In this document: positions 20,790 through 46,775 of the stretch, in pieces | Layout: every line of letters starts with the position of its first letter | Position numbering within the stretch: position 1 is the first letter of the stretch | Assembly (NCBI GenBank): GCA_963771045.1 | Contig: CAVYRW010000004.1 | Coordinates: 1,408,001 to 1,472,000 of the forward strand | Reading direction: 5' to 3' | Length of the DNA: 64,000 nt | Origin: Waddliaceae bacterium | Lineage (GTDB): Bacteria; Chlamydiota; Chlamydiia; Chlamydiales; SLFE01 | Notes under the pieces: model-generated | Told to the model about the DNA's origin: nothing | The model's database searches: none | What the model saw: only the letters and a program-made list of their open reading frames with translations | Position numbers and translations under genes: made by a program

Positions 20790-21677
20790 TTATATAGATC
20801 TGTCTAGCAAGCGGGAGAAATTCTTTGCGAAGGCTTTGACATCAAATGCCGCCTCGACTTCAACCCACGGTATGATCCCCGCTTTCCATGCAGGAGGAGT
20901 GAATTTCTTGATTCGATAAATAGTTTTGATAAACATTTCGGCAATTGACGGATCCCCTCTGAACCATGGCTTCGCTTTGCATATCCACCAAAAAATCTCG
21001 CCTAGCTTTTTATCCAAAGAGACCTGGTCCTCAATCCGCATCGCTTTTTGATAAAGCTCGTCGACATAATCGAAAATTTCATTCGCATGTATTTGAACTT
21101 GCATGAATGATATACTTTTCTCTTTTTCAGAGAAAAAAAAGAGAGTCGAATGCGATTTATTTTTAATATATCCGTAAGATTGTATTGTTATTTTCGTCTT
21201 ACAGCTTTTTCTTTTAAAAAATTTTGTCTCGCACTCATCGGCGCATAAAGTTTCAACCCTTTTAGCTAATTCTTTGTATCGATTTTGCAATTTGGTCTTC
21301 ATGCGGACCTCGCTTTCTTGAATTTTATGCTTTCGAATGCTCAGGCCATAGTCATCAAAATTTAGATGGCCTAGTTTAACTGCCATCACATGCCTAAAAT
21401 ATGCCAACACTGCCAAAGTTTGCCGAAAAGTCCATCCTTTTTTCAAAATTCCTTTTTGAGCCATCAAAGTTCCTGAGCGCATATAGGAACCAAAGTACTT
21501 TTGGTTATTTTTTTCCTGTCCATATATTTTAACGTTTTCCCAACTCCTTTCTCGAATCACATAGCGCCTCCAGTATACCTTCGAATTTTTTTTAGGAAAC
21601 CGCCTGCTAAATTTCTCAAAATCGATCAGAGTACCGAAATCCAGTATAAAGTCCCGTTTGGGTCCGTTGAACGCCAT
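20790..21677 (-). CDS. Hypothetical protein with C-terminal AvrB/Fido-like motif; start uncertain (frame stays open about 70 codons upstream)
   Basis: LGEIFWWICKAKPWFRGDPSIAEM resembles the AvrB-type xxPxxRGSAAxxE loop. Confidence 0.5.
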   Translation of the reverse strand: MAFNGPKRDFILDFGTLIDFEKFSRRFPKKNSKVYWRRYVIRERSWENVKIYGQEKNNQKYFGSYMRSGTLMAQKGILKKGWTFRQTLAVLAYFRHVMAVKLGHLNFDDYGLSIRKHKIQESEVRMKTKLQNRYKELAKRVETLCADECETKFFKRKSCKTKITIQSYGYIKNKSHSTLFFFSEKEKSISFMQVQIHANEIFDYVDELYQKAMRIEDQVSLDKKLGEIFWWICKAKPWFRGDPSIAEMFIKTIYRIKKFTPPAWKAGIIPWVEVEAAFDVKAFAKNFSRLLDRSI

Positions 21678-35964: not shown

Positions 35965-38181
35965 TTAGCTTGCCGGCTGCTCAAAATCTGCAATAAATTG
36001 AGCAATCTTATCTTTCCCTGCCATTTGAAAGGCTGTTTTAATTCTCTTAATATAACGCTGGCCGAAAAAGTTGTATTTTGCGAGTTCTTCGAGGAGAAAT
36101 GACAAAGCTTGCTTTTTTTCAGACTGATAATTCTGAACCAGCCAATTGATGCCCCATTCAGAATGCGCTGTCGCAATTATAATATTCAGGAGTTCAGCAG
36201 CAAGCCGGGGCCAGTCTTTGTCTAAAACCGAATTTTTAACATTTCCCTTCATATTGCCAATGATTTGCCTCTGATGCTCATATTTGGCTAAAGCCAAAGT
36301 CAGATAAGGCTCAGAATGGGGGGCTTCATACTGTATCTCAAGCCAGCATTTGGCTATAGCTCCTTGAGCCTCACGCAATACATGATAACGGACAAACTGA
36401 GATTCTTTCGGCAATGACTCAAGATGATCGGCAAGATCAGTTCGTTCCAATTCAATCAATAGCTGCTTTAATTGCTTCCAGGCTTTTGAATATGTTTTTT
36501 CATCTTGCGCCATATTGACCAAAGCGATATCAGCTTCTAACTTTTTCATTTTAGTTATTGAAGCCCTCGTGATCACTTCATCTGCTTCCTCAAGCCACTT
36601 TTTTCCTGCGCGGGATAACATTTTGCTTTTCACAAGTTTATAAAGAGCATAGCCTTTTTCCGGGTTTTCTATTTCATTTTCCATAATTTGATGTCTTAAA
36701 AAAGCCATCAAACATTGCGCTGTACATGTACCTGTTGCCTGCTTTTGCTCATAATCAAAGCGATTTCCTGTAGGATCTTTTTTTACACCTTTTTCTGCCA
36801 GTTGATGGATGATTTGATAAATCTTGCCTATATTTGCGGATTCTGGAACTTCCTGAAAAAGAGTTTCCCATTTTTCAGATTGAAGAAGGGATTCTTTGGG
36901 AATATGATCAAAAATTAAAAAAGTCTGAAAGCGGTTTGTTTCTTCCCACTGATAATGCCAATTAGGGACTCCTCTTCCGGTATTGTATTGAATCAGTCTT
37001 AAATCTTCTTCCGATGTTTTTTCAATAATGAGACACATTTGATGTACCTGTGACCTTAAAGGAACAAGGATTTTTTTACCTATTTGCAGATTTTCTATGT
37101 CAAACAAAATTTCCTTAATGGCAAATGTACTATAATTATTTCTGATTGCACAGTCCCATATCATACATTGTCTGATTAAAGGAATCACATCTTCTTGTAA
37201 TTTTATATTTAAGTATGATGGTACTAACGAAGATTGTTTAATCGACTCGATAGCTCTAATCAGATTCTCTCCGGTAAAAATCATCTCAAATCCTTTATAG
37301 GCCGCCCTTGTTGGAATCATCATTTTATCGAGAAGAAAATGAAGAGCATGTTTACTATTTAAATTTACAGAAAATTCCTTTGCAATCAAACCTCTCAATA
37401 CATCGAATTCCTTTAGGGTTAAACACATATTTATTAACCTGCTCTTATTTGTACCTTGGAGGATAACCCATTGATCCCGAGGTGTAGTTTTTAATTTTTG
37501 AATAAGCGGCTGATAAGCTTCAATCAAATCATAAGATCTCACTGCCAGAATTTGTTTTTCAACCTGTTGATCAAAGAAAGATAGATAGGGTAATTTTTTT
37601 TCATTCAGCTTCTTTAAATATCTTCTTACTAGCGGCTCATTGAACAAAATCCTTTGGGGTAAATATTCATTTTTAAATGTTTCAAACCACCTTGAGAAAA
37701 GATTGACAGATTCTTTAGCAAACTGCTTTTCAAGCGATTGATTAAACGATGGCCTTTCTTTTCCGACCAATGATATGAGATGCTCACGCTGGTTATCGCA
37801 GCAGAAAACAAGACCGGTTTTGATCAAATAGGAATATATCCGAGAATCGTCTTCTCCTTGAAAATTTCTGTTATACATATGCTCAGTCAAATTTTGCAGA
37901 GCCCTGTGATATTCGGATGTCATCTCTTTTGGAACATCAAAATAGCGTATTGCTTGGAAGAATAACCGATCAATTGTTTGATGAAGCTTTCCCAGGTATT
38001 TTATACTCTCATTTGCTTGACTGAAAGCTTCTAACAGAGGGTGTATGTCTTTCTGACTTGGTTTAGAGGCAAGATATTTGCTAAATTCTTCCTCGATCTT
38101 ATCAACGTTATCTTCACTAAAATTCTTCAGTCGAAAACTTAAAGAATTCAAATTACATGAACTAGTATTGTTTATATTCAT
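35965..38181 (-). CDS. 738-aa protein with candidate Cys-protease (His/Asn/Gln-Cys, CE-clan-like) domain
   Basis: HQMCLIIEK...QYNTGRG...QKQATGTCTAQC; Asn/Ser-rich N-terminus. Confidence 0.6.
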   Translation of the reverse strand: MNINNTSSCNLNSLSFRLKNFSEDNVDKIEEEFSKYLASKPSQKDIHPLLEAFSQANESIKYLGKLHQTIDRLFFQAIRYFDVPKEMTSEYHRALQNLTEHMYNRNFQGEDDSRIYSYLIKTGLVFCCDNQREHLISLVGKERPSFNQSLEKQFAKESVNLFSRWFETFKNEYLPQRILFNEPLVRRYLKKLNEKKLPYLSFFDQQVEKQILAVRSYDLIEAYQPLIQKLKTTPRDQWVILQGTNKSRLINMCLTLKEFDVLRGLIAKEFSVNLNSKHALHFLLDKMMIPTRAAYKGFEMIFTGENLIRAIESIKQSSLVPSYLNIKLQEDVIPLIRQCMIWDCAIRNNYSTFAIKEILFDIENLQIGKKILVPLRSQVHQMCLIIEKTSEEDLRLIQYNTGRGVPNWHYQWEETNRFQTFLIFDHIPKESLLQSEKWETLFQEVPESANIGKIYQIIHQLAEKGVKKDPTGNRFDYEQKQATGTCTAQCLMAFLRHQIMENEIENPEKGYALYKLVKSKMLSRAGKKWLEEADEVITRASITKMKKLEADIALVNMAQDEKTYSKAWKQLKQLLIELERTDLADHLESLPKESQFVRYHVLREAQGAIAKCWLEIQYEAPHSEPYLTLALAKYEHQRQIIGNMKGNVKNSVLDKDWPRLAAELLNIIIATAHSEWGINWLVQNYQSEKKQALSFLLEELAKYNFFGQRYIKRIKTAFQMAGKDKIAQFIADFEQPAS

Positions 38182-38244: not shown

Positions 38245-39021
38245 TTAATTTAACAAACGTTCTAGATTGTCATCGATAAAGATTCCGCATGCTACAAGCA
38301 CAACATTGACTGTGGTTCGAGGTAAAAGGCCTGCGTATAAAGTCCGGGTTTTTTGTTTGAAGGGCTCTTGCTTAAGCCTTCTCCAAATTCCCCTGATTGT
38401 GCATGAACGATCTACCTGTAGATTAATGCGAAGTACTTGAAGAGGCTGTGTTGCTATGCAAGTGCCGAAGCCCGTAGCCAAACTGCTGAATAACATTGCT
38501 AAAGAAGAGTCTACTCCTTTATTGGATATCTTCCGCTGCAACACTGCTCCCCACGTCAGCACTCCGCCGACTGCAATACAGTCGCGCCCCAGCGTAGGAA
38601 GGAATCCCCTATAGAGCCCTCGGAAGCCGTCATGGCGAATGATTTCTCTGAATAAGGAAAGATTCCCTTTTCCTGTTTTATTATCTAAGGCGGCAACCCG
38701 CTCGCCCGGACAAACTGCGACGACCGACGCACCCCCGGAAATAAGTCCAATCGCTACTTCCGTACCATCAGATTGCTTCCATTTCCATCTTTCAAACCCA
38801 TTCCGAAGAGCCCCTTTACTAAGATGAGCTACACACATAAACCCGAAGTAGCTGAAAAAATTCGCAGAGGCGCCCCGCCATATATCCTGAAGACGAAATG
38901 GCATATTTTCTACTCTGCAATACTGCCAATGCAAAAGGGGATTAGTTGCAAAGGTCGCGCTTATTGCACTCATTGCTCCTTGAAAGAAGTCTCTTGAGGT
39001 GCCGGTGAATGATGGATCCAT
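38245..39021 (-). CDS. Mitochondrial carrier (SLC25/Solcar) family protein
   Basis: Three repeats: NPLLHW..IWRG, CPGERV..GFRGLYRGFLPTLGRD, QPLQVLR..LYAGLLPR. Confidence 0.8.
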   Translation of the reverse strand: MDPSFTGTSRDFFQGAMSAISATFATNPLLHWQYCRVENMPFRLQDIWRGASANFFSYFGFMCVAHLSKGALRNGFERWKWKQSDGTEVAIGLISGGASVVAVCPGERVAALDNKTGKGNLSLFREIIRHDGFRGLYRGFLPTLGRDCIAVGGVLTWGAVLQRKISNKGVDSSLAMLFSSLATGFGTCIATQPLQVLRINLQVDRSCTIRGIWRRLKQEPFKQKTRTLYAGLLPRTTVNVVLVACGIFIDDNLERLLN

Positions 39022-39076: not shown

Positions 39077-40273
39077 CTACAGCCCGATTTTCACTCCACT
39101 GCTTGTATAGCGGGCTTTTTGAAGAGCCCCTTCAAGAGTCTCTCCCAGTGCAAGAGCCACACCCATTCTCCTCTCCCCATCCACCTCGGGTTTTCCAAAA
39201 AGCCTAATCTCCGTTCCTTCTTGAGAAAGCGCTTCCTTAAGGTTGTTGAAACTGACATTTTTTGAATTTCCTCGGGCTAAAATCACAGATGACGCAGCAG
39301 GTCCCAGTTGCCTGATTTTGGGAATAGGCAGCCCCAAAATCGCTCTGGCGTGAAGGGCGAACTGAGAAAGATTTTGAGAAATCATGGTCACCATGCCTGT
39401 ATCGTGAGGCCTTGGCGACACTTCATTAAATAGAACGTCTTCGCCTTTAATGAAAAGCTCCACGCCGAAAATGCCCATCCCTCCTAAAGCTGAAGTGATC
39501 GTTTCGGCCATCGACTTTGCTTTTTCAAGAACCCTCTGAGGCATGGGATGCGGCTGCCATGACTGCCTGTAATCCCCATTCTCCTGCAGATGGCCGATGG
39601 GCTCGCAAAATGACGTGGCAATGTTTTCGCCGGAACCGGCATACCGCACGGTCAGCAAAGTGATTTCATAGTCAAAGTCAATGAAGCCCTCGACGATCAC
39701 TTTGTCCGCTTTGCCGCGCGCGCTTGTGCGGGCGGATTCCCAAGCTTCCTCAGCGTCATTCCTGTCTTTAATAAAAGACTGCCCCTTTCCTGAAGAGCTC
39801 ATCATCGGTTTCACCACGCAGGGAAAACCGATGCTGTTCACCGCTTTCAAATAGTCTTCTTGAGACGACACAATTTTGTAAGGCGTTGTGGGCAGCCCCA
39901 ATTCCTCGGCGGCAAGCCGCCGAATCCACTCCCGATTCATCGCGATGCTGACAGCTTTTGCCGTTGGAGTGACCCGAAAGCCCCTTTCTTCCAATTTGAT
40001 GAGCGCCTCAACAGCGATAGCCTCGATTTCAGGAATGATTAGATCGGGCTGCTCTTCTTCGATTAATTGCATTAAGGCCTTTTCATCGAGCATGGATACC
40101 GTGCGGGATCGATGCGCCACCTGCATCGCGGGAGCATTGGGGTATCGGTCGACAGCGACAACCTCGACGCCCAATCTTTGCAGTTCGATGACAAGCTCCT
40201 TTCCAAGCTCTCCGGCTCCCAGAATCAGAGCCGTTGTGGCATTTGACGACAAAGGCGTTCCGATAGCAGGCAT
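39077..40273 (-). CDS. purT: Formate-dependent phosphoribosylglycinamide formyltransferase
   Basis: [47 protein letters not shown]. Confidence 0.95.
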
Positions 40274-43297: not shown

Positions 43298-43900
43298 TTA
43301 GCGAGTTGTTTTGTTATTAGTAGACTGATTTAAACTTCCGCTATTGTTTCCATTTGCCGGTTTGCTGCTTTTGATGTTGTTGTTATTAGAATTGTGCTGG
43401 TAGTAGCCTTGGCTGTTGCGCTGATTCGGTCTCCAGGCTGGAGCAGGGCAGCTTCCATTTGCGCAAGGAGATTCCTGTTTGTCATAGTAGCTGCACTTTT
43501 TGTATTTGCAGCATGGAATGTATTCGCAGCAGTTGTCGTAGACAGTTCTTTTTCTGTATGTGCAGTAACGTTCGTAGTGGCATTTAGGAACTTTTACACA
43601 ATATGACTCATAGTAATACTGAGGAACATATCGGCAGCACCTTTTTTGCCTTGTTTGATACTCGCAAGTTTCGCATTTTTTGCATTTCCACACAGGCTCA
43701 TAGACGCAGCGTGGTTTGCAATAGTACCTTGGTTTGTATGTCACTACCGGCTGATAACAGATAGTAGGACATTGACAACAATTGTATTCCTGGCCGCACT
43801 CAACGCCGTCCCTGGCAACCTGGTGGTTGCCCCATCCGGCAAATGCAGGCAGGAATGATAGCACACCTAGTGCAAAAAGCACTGAAAAGTAACGCTTCAT
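43298..43900 (-). CDS. Secreted Cys/Tyr-rich 12-residue-repeat protein
   Basis: Signal peptide; CRYVPQYYYESY|CVKVPKCHYERY|CTYRKRTVYDNC|CEYIPCCKYKKC; Asn-rich tail; GGAGG RBS. Confidence 0.8.
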   Translation of the reverse strand: MKRYFSVLFALGVLSFLPAFAGWGNHQVARDGVECGQEYNCCQCPTICYQPVVTYKPRYYCKPRCVYEPVWKCKKCETCEYQTRQKRCCRYVPQYYYESYCVKVPKCHYERYCTYRKRTVYDNCCEYIPCCKYKKCSYYDKQESPCANGSCPAPAWRPNQRNSQGYYQHNSNNNNIKSSKPANGNNSGSLNQSTNNKTTR

Positions 43901-44119: not shown

Positions 44120-44608
44120 TTAGTTGCAAGAACTGCACTCTTGCGGACTGCACTCGCTGCATTGACTGCAATCCGGAGGATAATACTTGCACCTTTTGTA
44201 GCATTGTTTGGGAACCCAATTGACATGCCGGTTGTATTTGACGCATTTGTCATACGTATAATACCTGCTATAGGTATCAACCGGTTCATACTTCAGAATT
44301 TTCTGTGTATAAACTTTTGGTTCGTATTTGATGAATTTTTGCTCATAGTAGCGGGGAACATATTTGACTCCCCTCATCCATTTTTCTTCGGGTATGTAAG
44401 TGCATTCGGGAATTTTGCATGTCTCGCAAACATACTTCACATAAGGTTGGTAGCAGTATTTAGGCTCCTGATCGCATCCTCCCTGGTACCAGCCGACAGG
44501 CATCGAACAACCCGGCCGGCACGCCCGTTTTTGACGCCAACCGGCGTCTAAAGAAGAAAAGATAATCAGAAAAGATAAAATGATCGAAATTGCAGATTTC
44601 ATCCCCAA
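44120..44608 (-). CDS. Secreted Cys/Tyr-rich 12-residue-repeat protein, paralogue of 43298..43900
   Basis: Signal peptide; CTYIPEEKWMRG|VKYVPRYYEQKF|IKYEPKVYTQKI|LKYEPVDTYSRY; Cys-rich C-terminus. Confidence 0.8.
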   Translation of the reverse strand: MGMKSAISIILSFLIIFSSLDAGWRQKRACRPGCSMPVGWYQGGCDQEPKYCYQPYVKYVCETCKIPECTYIPEEKWMRGVKYVPRYYEQKFIKYEPKVYTQKILKYEPVDTYSRYYTYDKCVKYNRHVNWVPKQCYKRCKYYPPDCSQCSECSPQECSSCN

Positions 44609-45369: not shown

Positions 45370-45861
45370 CTAACTATCGCGAAGGGTATTCATAAATTTA
45401 CTCCAATCCCTCATATCATACAGAGGTTTAAGAACATCGTAGCTTACATTGACCTTTTGGGCGAACTCACGAAGCGTTTGATCGTTGATTTTGTTTTGCC
45501 GCAAAGCCAAATTGAACGTCGCGCCGAAATCCTTGACATAGCGGTTCCAGGGCACCTTCCCGATATTTTTTGTTTTAGCCTTCAATCCCGGATTGGAAAA
45601 AATATACTGGAGGTGAGTCAAAGGATTTATCTTATTGGTTTCTCTGCCGACAGCTTCGAGCTGCTTTTTAACTCCAAGAAGACCGAACATGGACTTGCTT
45701 GAAAGAGTGTTGATTATATAATTGATATTCTGTTTGTTCTGCTCTGTCAAAGGAGTGTCGTAGCTTTTAATTTCCCGGCCCGAACTTTGTTCGTTTGCCG
45801 CAAATAAACCACTACCTGCCAAAAAACAGAAACACAAAAATAAAAATGCCGGCTTCTTCAT
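45370..45861 (-). CDS. Secreted hypothetical protein
   Basis: Signal peptide MKKPAFLFLCFCFLAGSGLFA; AAGGAG RBS; ATGA overlap with upstream gene. Confidence 0.7.
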   Translation of the reverse strand: MKKPAFLFLCFCFLAGSGLFAANEQSSGREIKSYDTPLTEQNKQNINYIINTLSSKSMFGLLGVKKQLEAVGRETNKINPLTHLQYIFSNPGLKAKTKNIGKVPWNRYVKDFGATFNLALRQNKINDQTLREFAQKVNVSYDVLKPLYDMRDWSKFMNTLRDS

Positions 45862-46775
45862 AACAACTCCTTTCTACCGTTAATCTGCCACGACTTTCCA
45901 TTTCTATCAAGCTGATTCTTGAAAAGATGAACCTGAGGACGATAAAATTTAACATACCTGTAGACCTCTTCGAAACTTTTTTTGCGATGTTTCATCAAAA
46001 AGGCGATGACGATAAGCGCGCTGCGCCCCATGCCGGCTTTGCAATGAACCAGCACTCGTCTTCCGGAATCGATCTCGGACTTAAGAAATTCGACCCCCTC
46101 TTCAAGCTTGTTGGGTTCGACTTTTTGAAGATCTTCGCTGACCACCTGTTTGTGAGCTATCCCTCTTTGCGCCCAATCATCCGGGGTTGCCGGATGCTCG
46201 AACCAGCCGAAACGGATATTTTCACAATCGTTTTCAAATGGTTCAAGTATGCTGAGAACCGAGTCGGGACGGTATTTTGAAACGAGAAAGTCGATATTAT
46301 TTTTCAGCGGGAGCGAGCCGAGGATAATCTCTGCATTGCGGGAAGGAATCACATCCCACCTGCGGTGTATGGGAAGCCCAAGCATCTTTTGAATGATAGG
46401 TTTTATCCGTATATAGAGTAGGACAAATTCAAAAAGAATTTTCTTTTTGATCGTCATCACAGAAGAGCATCCAGCGGCAAGTGGGGCATAAATTTCTTTG
46501 TGGGAGGATGATAGGCGCCTGAGCCTCATTCCCGCATAAATCAAAGGAAAGCTTATAGGGAGAGCGGCAAGAATTGCAAGAAACCAAAAAAATACCCCTT
46601 CCACCTTGCGCGAGGCAGCAGATAACCGATGATCCTTGTCAATGCATATGATCTGATATCCGAAAGCAAAGTGCACAGGCGTCAGAAGCAATCCGCTGAC
46701 CCTTTCTAAAAAATCCTTTTTCGGAGATTCGAATTCTCGAACAAACCGCACAAGATTGGAAGAATAGAGACTCAC
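45858..46775 (-). CDS. Dual-specificity phosphatase (PTPMT1-like) with hydrophobic N-terminal module
   Basis: VLVHCKAGMGRSA (CX5R), IILGSLP, EPFE, RPQV. Confidence 0.85.
   Translation of the reverse strand: MSLYSSNLVRFVREFESPKKDFLERVSGLLLTPVHFAFGYQIICIDKDHRLSAASRKVEGVFFWFLAILAALPISFPLIYAGMRLRRLSSSHKEIYAPLAAGCSSVMTIKKKILFEFVLLYIRIKPIIQKMLGLPIHRRWDVIPSRNAEIILGSLPLKNNIDFLVSKYRPDSVLSILEPFENDCENIRFGWFEHPATPDDWAQRGIAHKQVVSEDLQKVEPNKLEEGVEFLKSEIDSGRRVLVHCKAGMGRSALIVIAFLMKHRKKSFEEVYRYVKFYRPQVHLFKNQLDRNGKSWQINGRKELL

Follow-up and report, generated by a model that had tools for sequence, protein, structure and literature searches.

The mitochondrial carrier family is regarded as a hallmark of eukaryotes with a few exceptions in bacteria, among which LncP is the only one with a measured substrate in the literature covered. 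A sequence-only reading of the DNA analyzed here, a 64,000-nucleotide stretch from the genome of a Waddliaceae bacterium (the window), pointed to a gene of this family and proposed that it was derived from the host and encodes an effector for host mitochondria, perhaps an ungated transporter. The locus raises the questions of whether a chlamydia truly carries such a gene, how it was acquired, what its product may transport and in which membrane the product would act.

Identification of the carrier gene

The ORF, which runs from ATG to TAA exactly over positions 38245-39021 (minus strand), encodes a protein of 258 aa (P0001). A profile search matched it to PF00153 with 71.3 bits (E 5.5e-20; cut-off 22.3), repeats 2 and 3 being the two stretches that pass alone. 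A PDB sequence search gave 10 matches at E<=1, every one a carrier or a fusion with a carrier, the best being UCP2 (E 2.9e-6). The AlphaFold2 model (115-row alignment; pLDDT 93.5, pTM 0.88) has three repeats, with six long helices and short matrix helices (Table 1). Foldseek returned 14 matches to this model at E<=0.001, with UCP1 and ADP/ATP carriers at the top; the listed matches comprise two chains of Tetrahymena complex IV (TM 0.81) in addition to these ADP/ATP carriers and UCP1 (TM 0.77). The ESM Atlas gave generic carrier clusters only, and a word-indexed protein search only 4 matches. The assignment made from sequence is confirmed: this is a true mitochondrial carrier family (SLC25/PF00153) gene in a bacterium.

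The details of that reading were largely correct. The three repeats and the Pro kinks of the odd helices (P28, P105 and P193) are present, as are [YWF][RK]G-type motifs before the even helices (WRG 48, YRG 137 and YAG 229), although the full GLYRG...R form described for them occurs in repeat 2 only. The PX[DE]XX[KR] signature, described as degenerate in all three repeats, is indeed complete in none: (i) H1 has P-L-L-H-W-Q, (ii) H3 has P-G-E-R-V-A (acid only) and (iii) H5 has P-L-Q-V-L-R (base only). The matrix loop of repeat 1 is short, with 23 residues from P28 to G50, compared with a median of 40 in 84 canonical carriers.

Table 1. Positions of the carrier gene, its structural elements and its two neighbors in the window.
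Feature	Position	Strand	Basis
Mitochondrial carrier family gene, 258 aa (P0001)	38245..39021	-	PF00153, PDB matches, AlphaFold2, Foldseek, 89% orthologue
N-terminal 16 residues, S/T/P-rich, candidate type III secretion signal	38974..39021	-	S+T+P 0.33
H1, residues 7-37, weakly hydrophobic	38911..39003	-	AlphaFold2; maximum 19-residue hydropathy 0.93
Signature 1, P28-L30-Q33; acid position hydrophobic, base position Gln	38923..38940	-	Motif and pair analysis
H2 (51-78): N54, uncharged contact point I S57/Y58, conserved K69	38788..38871	-	AlphaFold2, alignment
H3 (85-116)	38674..38769	-	AlphaFold2
Signature 2, P105-E107-A110, acid kept	38692..38709	-	E107 in 7/7 clade members
H4 (140-167)	38521..38604	-	AlphaFold2
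Contact point II R146-D147, amino-acid-carrier type	38581..38586	-	RD 7/7; class rule from PMC6769469
H5 (172-203)	38413..38508	-	AlphaFold2
Signature 3 and glutamine brace, P193-Q195-R198-Q202	38416..38445	-	Q195, R198, Q202 each 7/7
H6 (232-257): R235, N239, D250 conserved; contact point III Arg replaced by V238	38251..38328	-	AlphaFold2, alignment
purT, upstream neighbor	39077..40273	-	55-bp gap to carrier; 420 bp in G001
738-aa protein, no known family, downstream neighbor	35965..38181	-	63-bp gap; no Pfam, NCBIfam or PDB match

Genomic integrity and setting

The ORF might be mis-assembled or contaminating eukaryotic DNA, or else a decaying pseudogene; the genome (G000; 90.6% complete) appears to be metagenome-derived and has an estimated contamination of 2.09%. 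The gene, however, is intron-free, is flanked by bacterial genes and lies on a 2.29-Mb contig of the 2.57-Mb genome, and its G+C content (0.47) corresponds to the 61st percentile of 2252 crudely called genes. Its closest relative is an 89%-identical orthologue in an independent genome of a Waddliaceae bacterium (G001), which shares the gene order msrA-purT-carrier. The dN/dS value between the two orthologues is 0.18, a sign of purifying selection (0.12 for the last 259 codons of purT), and six of the seven nearest relatives of the protein form a bacterial-looking clade, far from eukaryotic sequences. Because of the chlamydial contig, the syntenic orthologue and the dN/dS value, the gene is not a mis-assembled eukaryotic fragment, the one artefact that the sequence-only reading had named; mis-assembly and decay are rejected, and we regard an explanation of this kind, refuted by the independent syntenic orthologue, as extremely improbable. 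Run X1 may be the source sample and is therefore left out of the support; parts of the gene are covered at a minimum of 99% by its contigs, none of which spans it.

The genome encodes a second, distant carrier paralogue of 260 aa (G000:C4 ~2105250-2106030; L003 1231-2013, plus strand), which groups in the tree with signal-peptide-bearing Babeliales-like proteins, yet has no such peptide. Five TLC nucleotide transporters are also present, as expected of a chlamydia. No relatives of P0001 were found among the plasmids and viral contigs searched, and an Rfam search of the window gave no match.

Three de novo purine genes occur in the window or elsewhere in the genome: purT, and purC and purD (G000:C4 1316123-1318263). 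Since the loss of such genes in the chlamydial ancestor has been reported (PMC9816063), these were probably regained.

Distribution of carriers in Chlamydiota

In a sample of 400 scored genomes drawn across Chlamydiota (one further genome was left unscored), PF00153 matched 118, of which 116 exceeded the cut-off; the matches covered 85 of 212 genera. Family f35, which has small genomes (1.0-1.2 Mb for those listed) and is probably Chlamydiaceae, gave no match in 29 genomes, nor did 14 control genomes, and the sample of relatives gave matches in 10 of 41. A profile built from the clade of the window's protein (see below) matched 60 of the 400 genomes. The window's own family comprises 6 genomes, five of which (all except G000) are in 50-280 contigs.

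These counts, together with the second paralogue and with a published mention of bacterial carriers in "a few Chlamydiales" (PMC5621508), do not agree with the earlier view that bacterial carriers are rare. The cited mention concerns the same kind of gene in the same bacterial order, and gives no count, subfamily or mechanism; another paper (PMC4378268) lists carriers in Babela. No phylum-wide survey of carriers in Chlamydiota was found in a full-text literature search. The word "carrier" is absent from the main text of PMC9816063 and occurs once, in a reference, in PMC8242063, and there was no carrier match in the supplements covered (one small file of the former and 11 of the 16 files of the latter). 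The presence of carriers in 118 of 400 genomes and their absence from the 29 genomes of f35 make them a regular part of environmental chlamydial biology. The window's gene is one member of a chlamydial carrier group, not a unique event; it is a known kind of gene, a bacterial SLC25, in a variant form with an amino-acid-type site and a rebuilt gate, in a chlamydia with type III secretion.

Relatives and origin

A HMMER search with P0001 retrieved five other full-length proteins at 37-48% identity, after which the values drop to about 22-35%; the nearest eukaryote-like relatives share ~22-29%. In the tree, P0001 belongs to a clade of seven full-length proteins, including P0002 (SH-aLRT 95), of which only two come from genomes with known taxonomy. 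The sister of this clade is a carrier of genome G003, from the same family as the window's genome.

The clade is part of a larger branch of carriers with a short first repeat, which is separated from 10 canonical carriers with an SH-aLRT of 100 (66 of 155 rows at 99 in FastTree). This branch contains (i) the majority of the retrieved chlamydial carriers, a share that is in part a selection effect, as the clade's profile had found many of them, (ii) proteins with signal peptides, one of them named Babeliales (MGE0207086.1; P0084), and (iii) eukaryote-like proteins, including one of Fonticula alba (XP_009494278; P0049), the other eukaryote-like rows being classed by appearance. P0086 was placed in the signal-peptide group. 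The marks of the branch, common to P0001 and to the protist and Babeliales proteins, are 23-25 residues in the first matrix loop, hydrophobic residues at the H1-H3 pair and an R[DE] site; these proteins also share with P0001 an Arg at +6 on H6 and the lack of the canonical cytoplasmic network. The window's clade differs from them in having Q-Q for D-K, K swapped for R on H5, Q swapped for N in the H3 brace, and the added residues K69 and D250. The Babeliales-type members, for their part, have signal-peptide-like N-termini. A literature search found no substrate assigned to this short-first-repeat subfamily.

The chlamydial members form several sub-branches. A single origin of the chlamydial short-type carriers was neither rejected nor shown by the AU test (p 0.194; 57 rows and a quick tree, with 16 long-branch or near-duplicate chlamydial rows left out). 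Given the broad occurrence of the family in eukaryotes, a transfer from eukaryote to bacterium is the direction that we infer. The proposal of a host-derived gene is upheld as regards eukaryotic ancestry, but not as regards the present host as donor: since the eukaryote-like relatives are only ~22-29% identical and the G+C content of the gene is ameliorated, the sequences point to an old transfer from a protist subfamily.

The matrix and cytoplasmic gates

In the ADP/ATP carrier structure, the matrix network pairs H1 with H3, H3 with H5 and H5 with H1. The same pairing fits our data: at each pair, a salt bridge is scored for 64-69 of the 84 canonical carriers. As these bridges join different helices, the signature motifs have to be considered pair by pair. 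The network links domains, with a glutamine four residues after the basic residue acting as a brace, and its partners often change together; paired substitution and uniport through a weak network have been described (PMC7611774).

Read in this way, the E107-R198 pair is ionic in all seven clade members, and the brace Q202 is also kept in all of them. The second pair, Q195-Q33, is Q-Q in six members and Q-H in one, with V or I now at its brace position; the 11 eukaryote-like relatives all have D-K here. The third pair, L30-A110, is hydrophobic throughout the clade (7/7) and likewise in the relatives (11/11), so only one bridge was changed within the window's clade, and on both sides. In sequence, as distinct from geometry, P0001 keeps one of three ionic pairs with its brace, and the other two are changed pairwise. 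The suggestion of an ungated transporter is not borne out by this pattern, which argues for a gate that is weakly latched, not absent, and rebuilt in matching pairs rather than lost. By the rules established for carriers, the matrix gate would close through the braced salt bridge E107-R198 (Q202), a hydrogen-bonded pair Q195-Q33 and a hydrophobic pair L30-A110, with a predicted strength of ~2 units on the Ruprecht-Kunji scale, on which the ADP/ATP carrier has 3.5.

The cytoplasmic network ([YF][DE]xx[KR]) is variable in the carrier family (PMC7611774), and its canonical form is missing from P0001, which has K69-G70-R73, G158-A159-Q162 and D250-D251-E254 at these positions. This absence does not exclude the protein from the family, since the protist-like relatives also lack the network. 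The position of K69 is occupied by K or R, and that of D250 by D, in all seven clade members. These are the brace positions of H2 and H6, and the two residues may form a pair that partly replaces the network. Because the canonical cytoplasmic network is absent, the carrier is predicted to be able to work as a uniporter.

The same residues bear on the idea that P0001 perturbs host mitochondria as a pore with no gate, or as a pseudo-carrier that transports nothing, in the manner of MTCH2 and SLC25A46 or as proposed for Lpg1137. That only one of three matrix bridges is ionic, that both the canonical [YF][DE]xx[KR] network and the Arg of contact point III are absent, and that P28 is replaced by Gly in 4 of 8 aligned members would all fit such a protein. 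However, the cytoplasmic network and one of the bridges are also missing in the protist-like relatives, and E107-R198, Q202, R146-D147, R235 and N54/T143/N239 are each conserved in 7/7 sequences that are only 36-89% identical. MTCH1/2 and SLC25A46 lose charged network residues (PMC7611774), unlike P0001, in which the braced E-R bridge and the R-D site are conserved (7/7), and Lpg1137 is far more divergent. We consider a pore or pseudo-carrier improbable. The gate, rewired by nature, is also a test of the model in which salt-bridge energy decides between uniport and exchange by carriers.

Predicted binding site and substrate

Contact point II of P0001 is R146-D147, and RD is found at this position in all seven clade members. 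According to PMC6769469, R[DE] at contact point II marks the amino-acid class, and nucleotide carriers have G[IVLM]; by this class rule, the comparison with LncP drawn at the outset does not extend to ATP transport. The same source describes glycine carriers as having RD together with an uncharged contact point I, and GC1/2 as lacking the Arg of contact point III. In P0001, contact point I is uncharged (S57/Y58) and contact point III is V238 (V, I or L in 7/7 clade members). The missing Arg tells against a textbook site, though GC1/2 lack Arg there too. R235, one turn before contact point III (+6), is kept in 7/7 clade members and in all 44 other short-type rows; it was considered as contact point III itself and rejected, as counting from the YxG motif puts the true position at V238.

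The substrate of P0001 is likely to be a neutral amino acid or a related compound, as judged from these residues; R[DE] is only a class rule, and carnitine carriers share it. The alpha-amino and carboxyl groups of the substrate would bind R146-D147, helped by R235, and a neutral side chain is predicted because contact point I is uncharged. Eukaryotic amino-acid carriers with partly similar features are described in PMC6769469 and PMC8598871: SLC25A38/Hem25p, GC1/GC2 and SLC25A29 share R[DE] at contact point II, GlyC the uncharged contact point I, GC1/2 the missing Arg of contact point III, and SLC25A29, which has high uniport, the missing cytoplasmic network. The likeness concerns the way of working only, and the tree places P0001 outside the canonical carriers sampled.

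Secretion signals and predicted location

The genome encodes SctV (898.9 bits; NCBIfam cut-off 692.25) and SctU (385.2 bits; cut-off 358), and the type III export gate, judged by these two proteins alone, is intact. No match to PF03135 (VirB4) or PF03743 (VirB10) was found in this 90.6%-complete genome, and F-type TraC occurs only as short-frame pieces. P0001 has no signal peptide, unlike five of its Babeliales-type relatives. Its residues 2-16 have an S+T+P fraction of 0.33, above 88% of the 2252 crudely called ORFs (genome mean 0.175); enrichment of these residues marks type III signals (PMC2669295). The signal is modest (88th-95th percentile), with only ~8 residues before H1. In 37 chlamydial carriers the mean fraction is 0.305, above that of 77 eukaryote-like carriers (0.223) and of 128 polytopic membrane proteins of the genome itself (0.162), a clear trend for the group. 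The window's clade by itself does not clearly exceed eukaryotic carriers (p 0.07); group p-values are overstated, since related sequences do not count as independent and starts were only crudely called. The mean hydropathy of H1 is 0.46 in the clade, compared with 1.24 in eukaryote-like carriers; in the own-membrane control set, hydrophobicity is biased upward by selection.

The reading to which we give most weight, at somewhat less than an even chance, is that P0001 is an intact, six-helix, gated carrier of the amino-acid type, which reaches the host by type III injection and is then taken up into the inner membrane of host mitochondria. SctV and SctU, the S/T/P-rich start and the lack of a signal peptide would fit type III secretion. 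Import could then follow the host TOM/TIM22 carrier route, by analogy with LncP, for which this route has been shown (PMC3252375). The host cytosol, on which the bacterium would feed, would then receive a net flow of an amino acid leaking from mitochondria; such a secreted carrier would give symbionts a direct way to draw on host mitochondria. Waddlia recruits mitochondria (PMC13021175), which is only an analogy for the window's carrier.

Legionella LncP and the carriers of L. longbeachae and Neorickettsia sennetsu (PMC3252375) resemble P0001 in their PF00153 domain, six helices, three repeats, presence in an intracellular bacterium and presumed lateral transfer from a eukaryote. LncP is a substrate of the Dot/Icm type IV system and a transporter of ATP, both shown experimentally. 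Compared by features, P0001 differs in its genome's type III system, the absence of VirB4 and VirB10 matches, and its R-D amino-acid-type site.

A gated amino-acid carrier could also reside in the chlamydia's own inner membrane, importing a host metabolite, e.g. glycine for the purT/purD/purC purine pathway. Gene neighborhoods point in this direction. Among 43 chlamydial carrier ORFs (Pfam run on 53 of 81 neighbors), 12 lie within 35 bp of a same-strand neighbor, many of these being genes of amino-acid metabolism or transport, and this tight linkage suggests use in the bacterium's own metabolism. Among the tight neighbors are genes for MFS transporters, an aminotransferase IV, TauD, a 2OG-Fe dioxygenase, a PALP enzyme and a Na:alanine symporter; carriers overlap or abut their neighbors at seven loci (L006, L007, L012, L043, L047, L052 and L055), one of which (L047) has two carriers in tandem, and at another (L046) a carrier lies between arginase-family and AdoMet decarboxylase genes. 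In the window's genome, purD and purC are present, and the carrier follows purT in both of the genomes in which the orthologue was seen. The gap between them, however, grows from 55 bp in the window to 420 bp in the closely related G001, and the neighbors of the two further clade relatives with known context are unrelated to the purT setting (L056, on a bacterial metagenome contig close to an aro operon, and L028). A promoter scan gave 6 sites (4.6 expected), none of them in the purT-carrier gap. Operon coupling to purT was considered as a candidate and is weakened by the unequal gaps.

The protein itself is compatible with a bacterial membrane in several respects. Its short N-tail would allow N-out insertion, its K/R residues (19 in the matrix-side loops and 10 opposite) fit the positive-inside rule, and the genome encodes a two-domain PLD-family protein that is a candidate cardiolipin synthase. 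Yeast mitochondrial carriers work in the membrane of L. lactis (PMC8961550). Against this stand the lack of a signal peptide, in which P0001 differs from the Babeliales-type relatives, an H1 that is less and not more hydrophobic than that of eukaryotic carriers, and N-termini of chlamydial carriers that differ from those of the genome's own membrane proteins. We give this location a lesser, though real, chance; if correct, it would mean that organelle transporters have been domesticated by bacteria.

Secretion followed by insertion into the inclusion (vacuole) or another host membrane, which would let metabolites into the vacuole, is a further possibility that we regard as doubtful. The N-terminal composition fits it as well as it fits mitochondria, but an insertase able to place a six-helix carrier in the inclusion membrane is not known to us. 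Chlamydial type III substrates do include inclusion-membrane proteins (PMC13021175); carriers in the eukaryotic cytosol, however, are routed to mitochondria by internal signals, as was LncP (PMC3252375).

Host mitochondria are the favored location, with the bacterium's own membrane second, and the group may contain carriers of both kinds. A more general proposal, which we put forward tentatively and consider on the unlikely side, is that the ~30% of Chlamydiota species with carriers, many of them from one protist amino-acid-carrier subfamily, use these, the first carriers delivered by type III secretion, to draw on the amino-acid pools of host mitochondria. The gate of the window's clade would have been rebuilt (D-K to Q-Q, with a new K69/D250 pair) into that of a weakly latched uniporter, and the same subfamily would be routed otherwise in other symbionts (signal peptide, own membrane). 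If true, this would be a natural experiment in re-addressing an organelle transporter.

Other genes of the window

The 738-aa product of the gene downstream of the carrier, which lies in a low-GC stretch (0.34-0.40), contains motifs (His, NTG and Q-x-x-G-x-C) whose order may resemble that of permuted papain-like effectors; it and the 458-aa neighbor are not detectably related. Two large ORFs (624-3257 and 60538-63606, minus strand; 877 and 1022 aa) have no Pfam or NCBIfam match. Eukaryote-like signaling domains were found in three effector-like ORFs (minus strand): (i) a weak protein kinase match, below the cut-off (13958-15391), (ii) a weak PP2C match, also below the cut-off (8924-11149), and (iii) a dual-specificity phosphatase (45858-46775; E 4e-18). 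A plant-pathogen effector-like domain is present in this chlamydia: the C-terminal 95 residues of a 295-aa ORF (20790-21677, minus strand) match AvrB/AvrC (PF05394; E 2.8e-9, 37.1 bits, cut-off 23.2), and the ORF scores 44 bits with NCBIfam XopAH/AvrB, far below the cut-off of 220. Two adjacent Cys/Tyr/Lys-rich proteins (43298-43900 and 44120-44608, minus strand), with signal-peptide-like starts and no family match, are conserved in G001 and are possibly envelope proteins.
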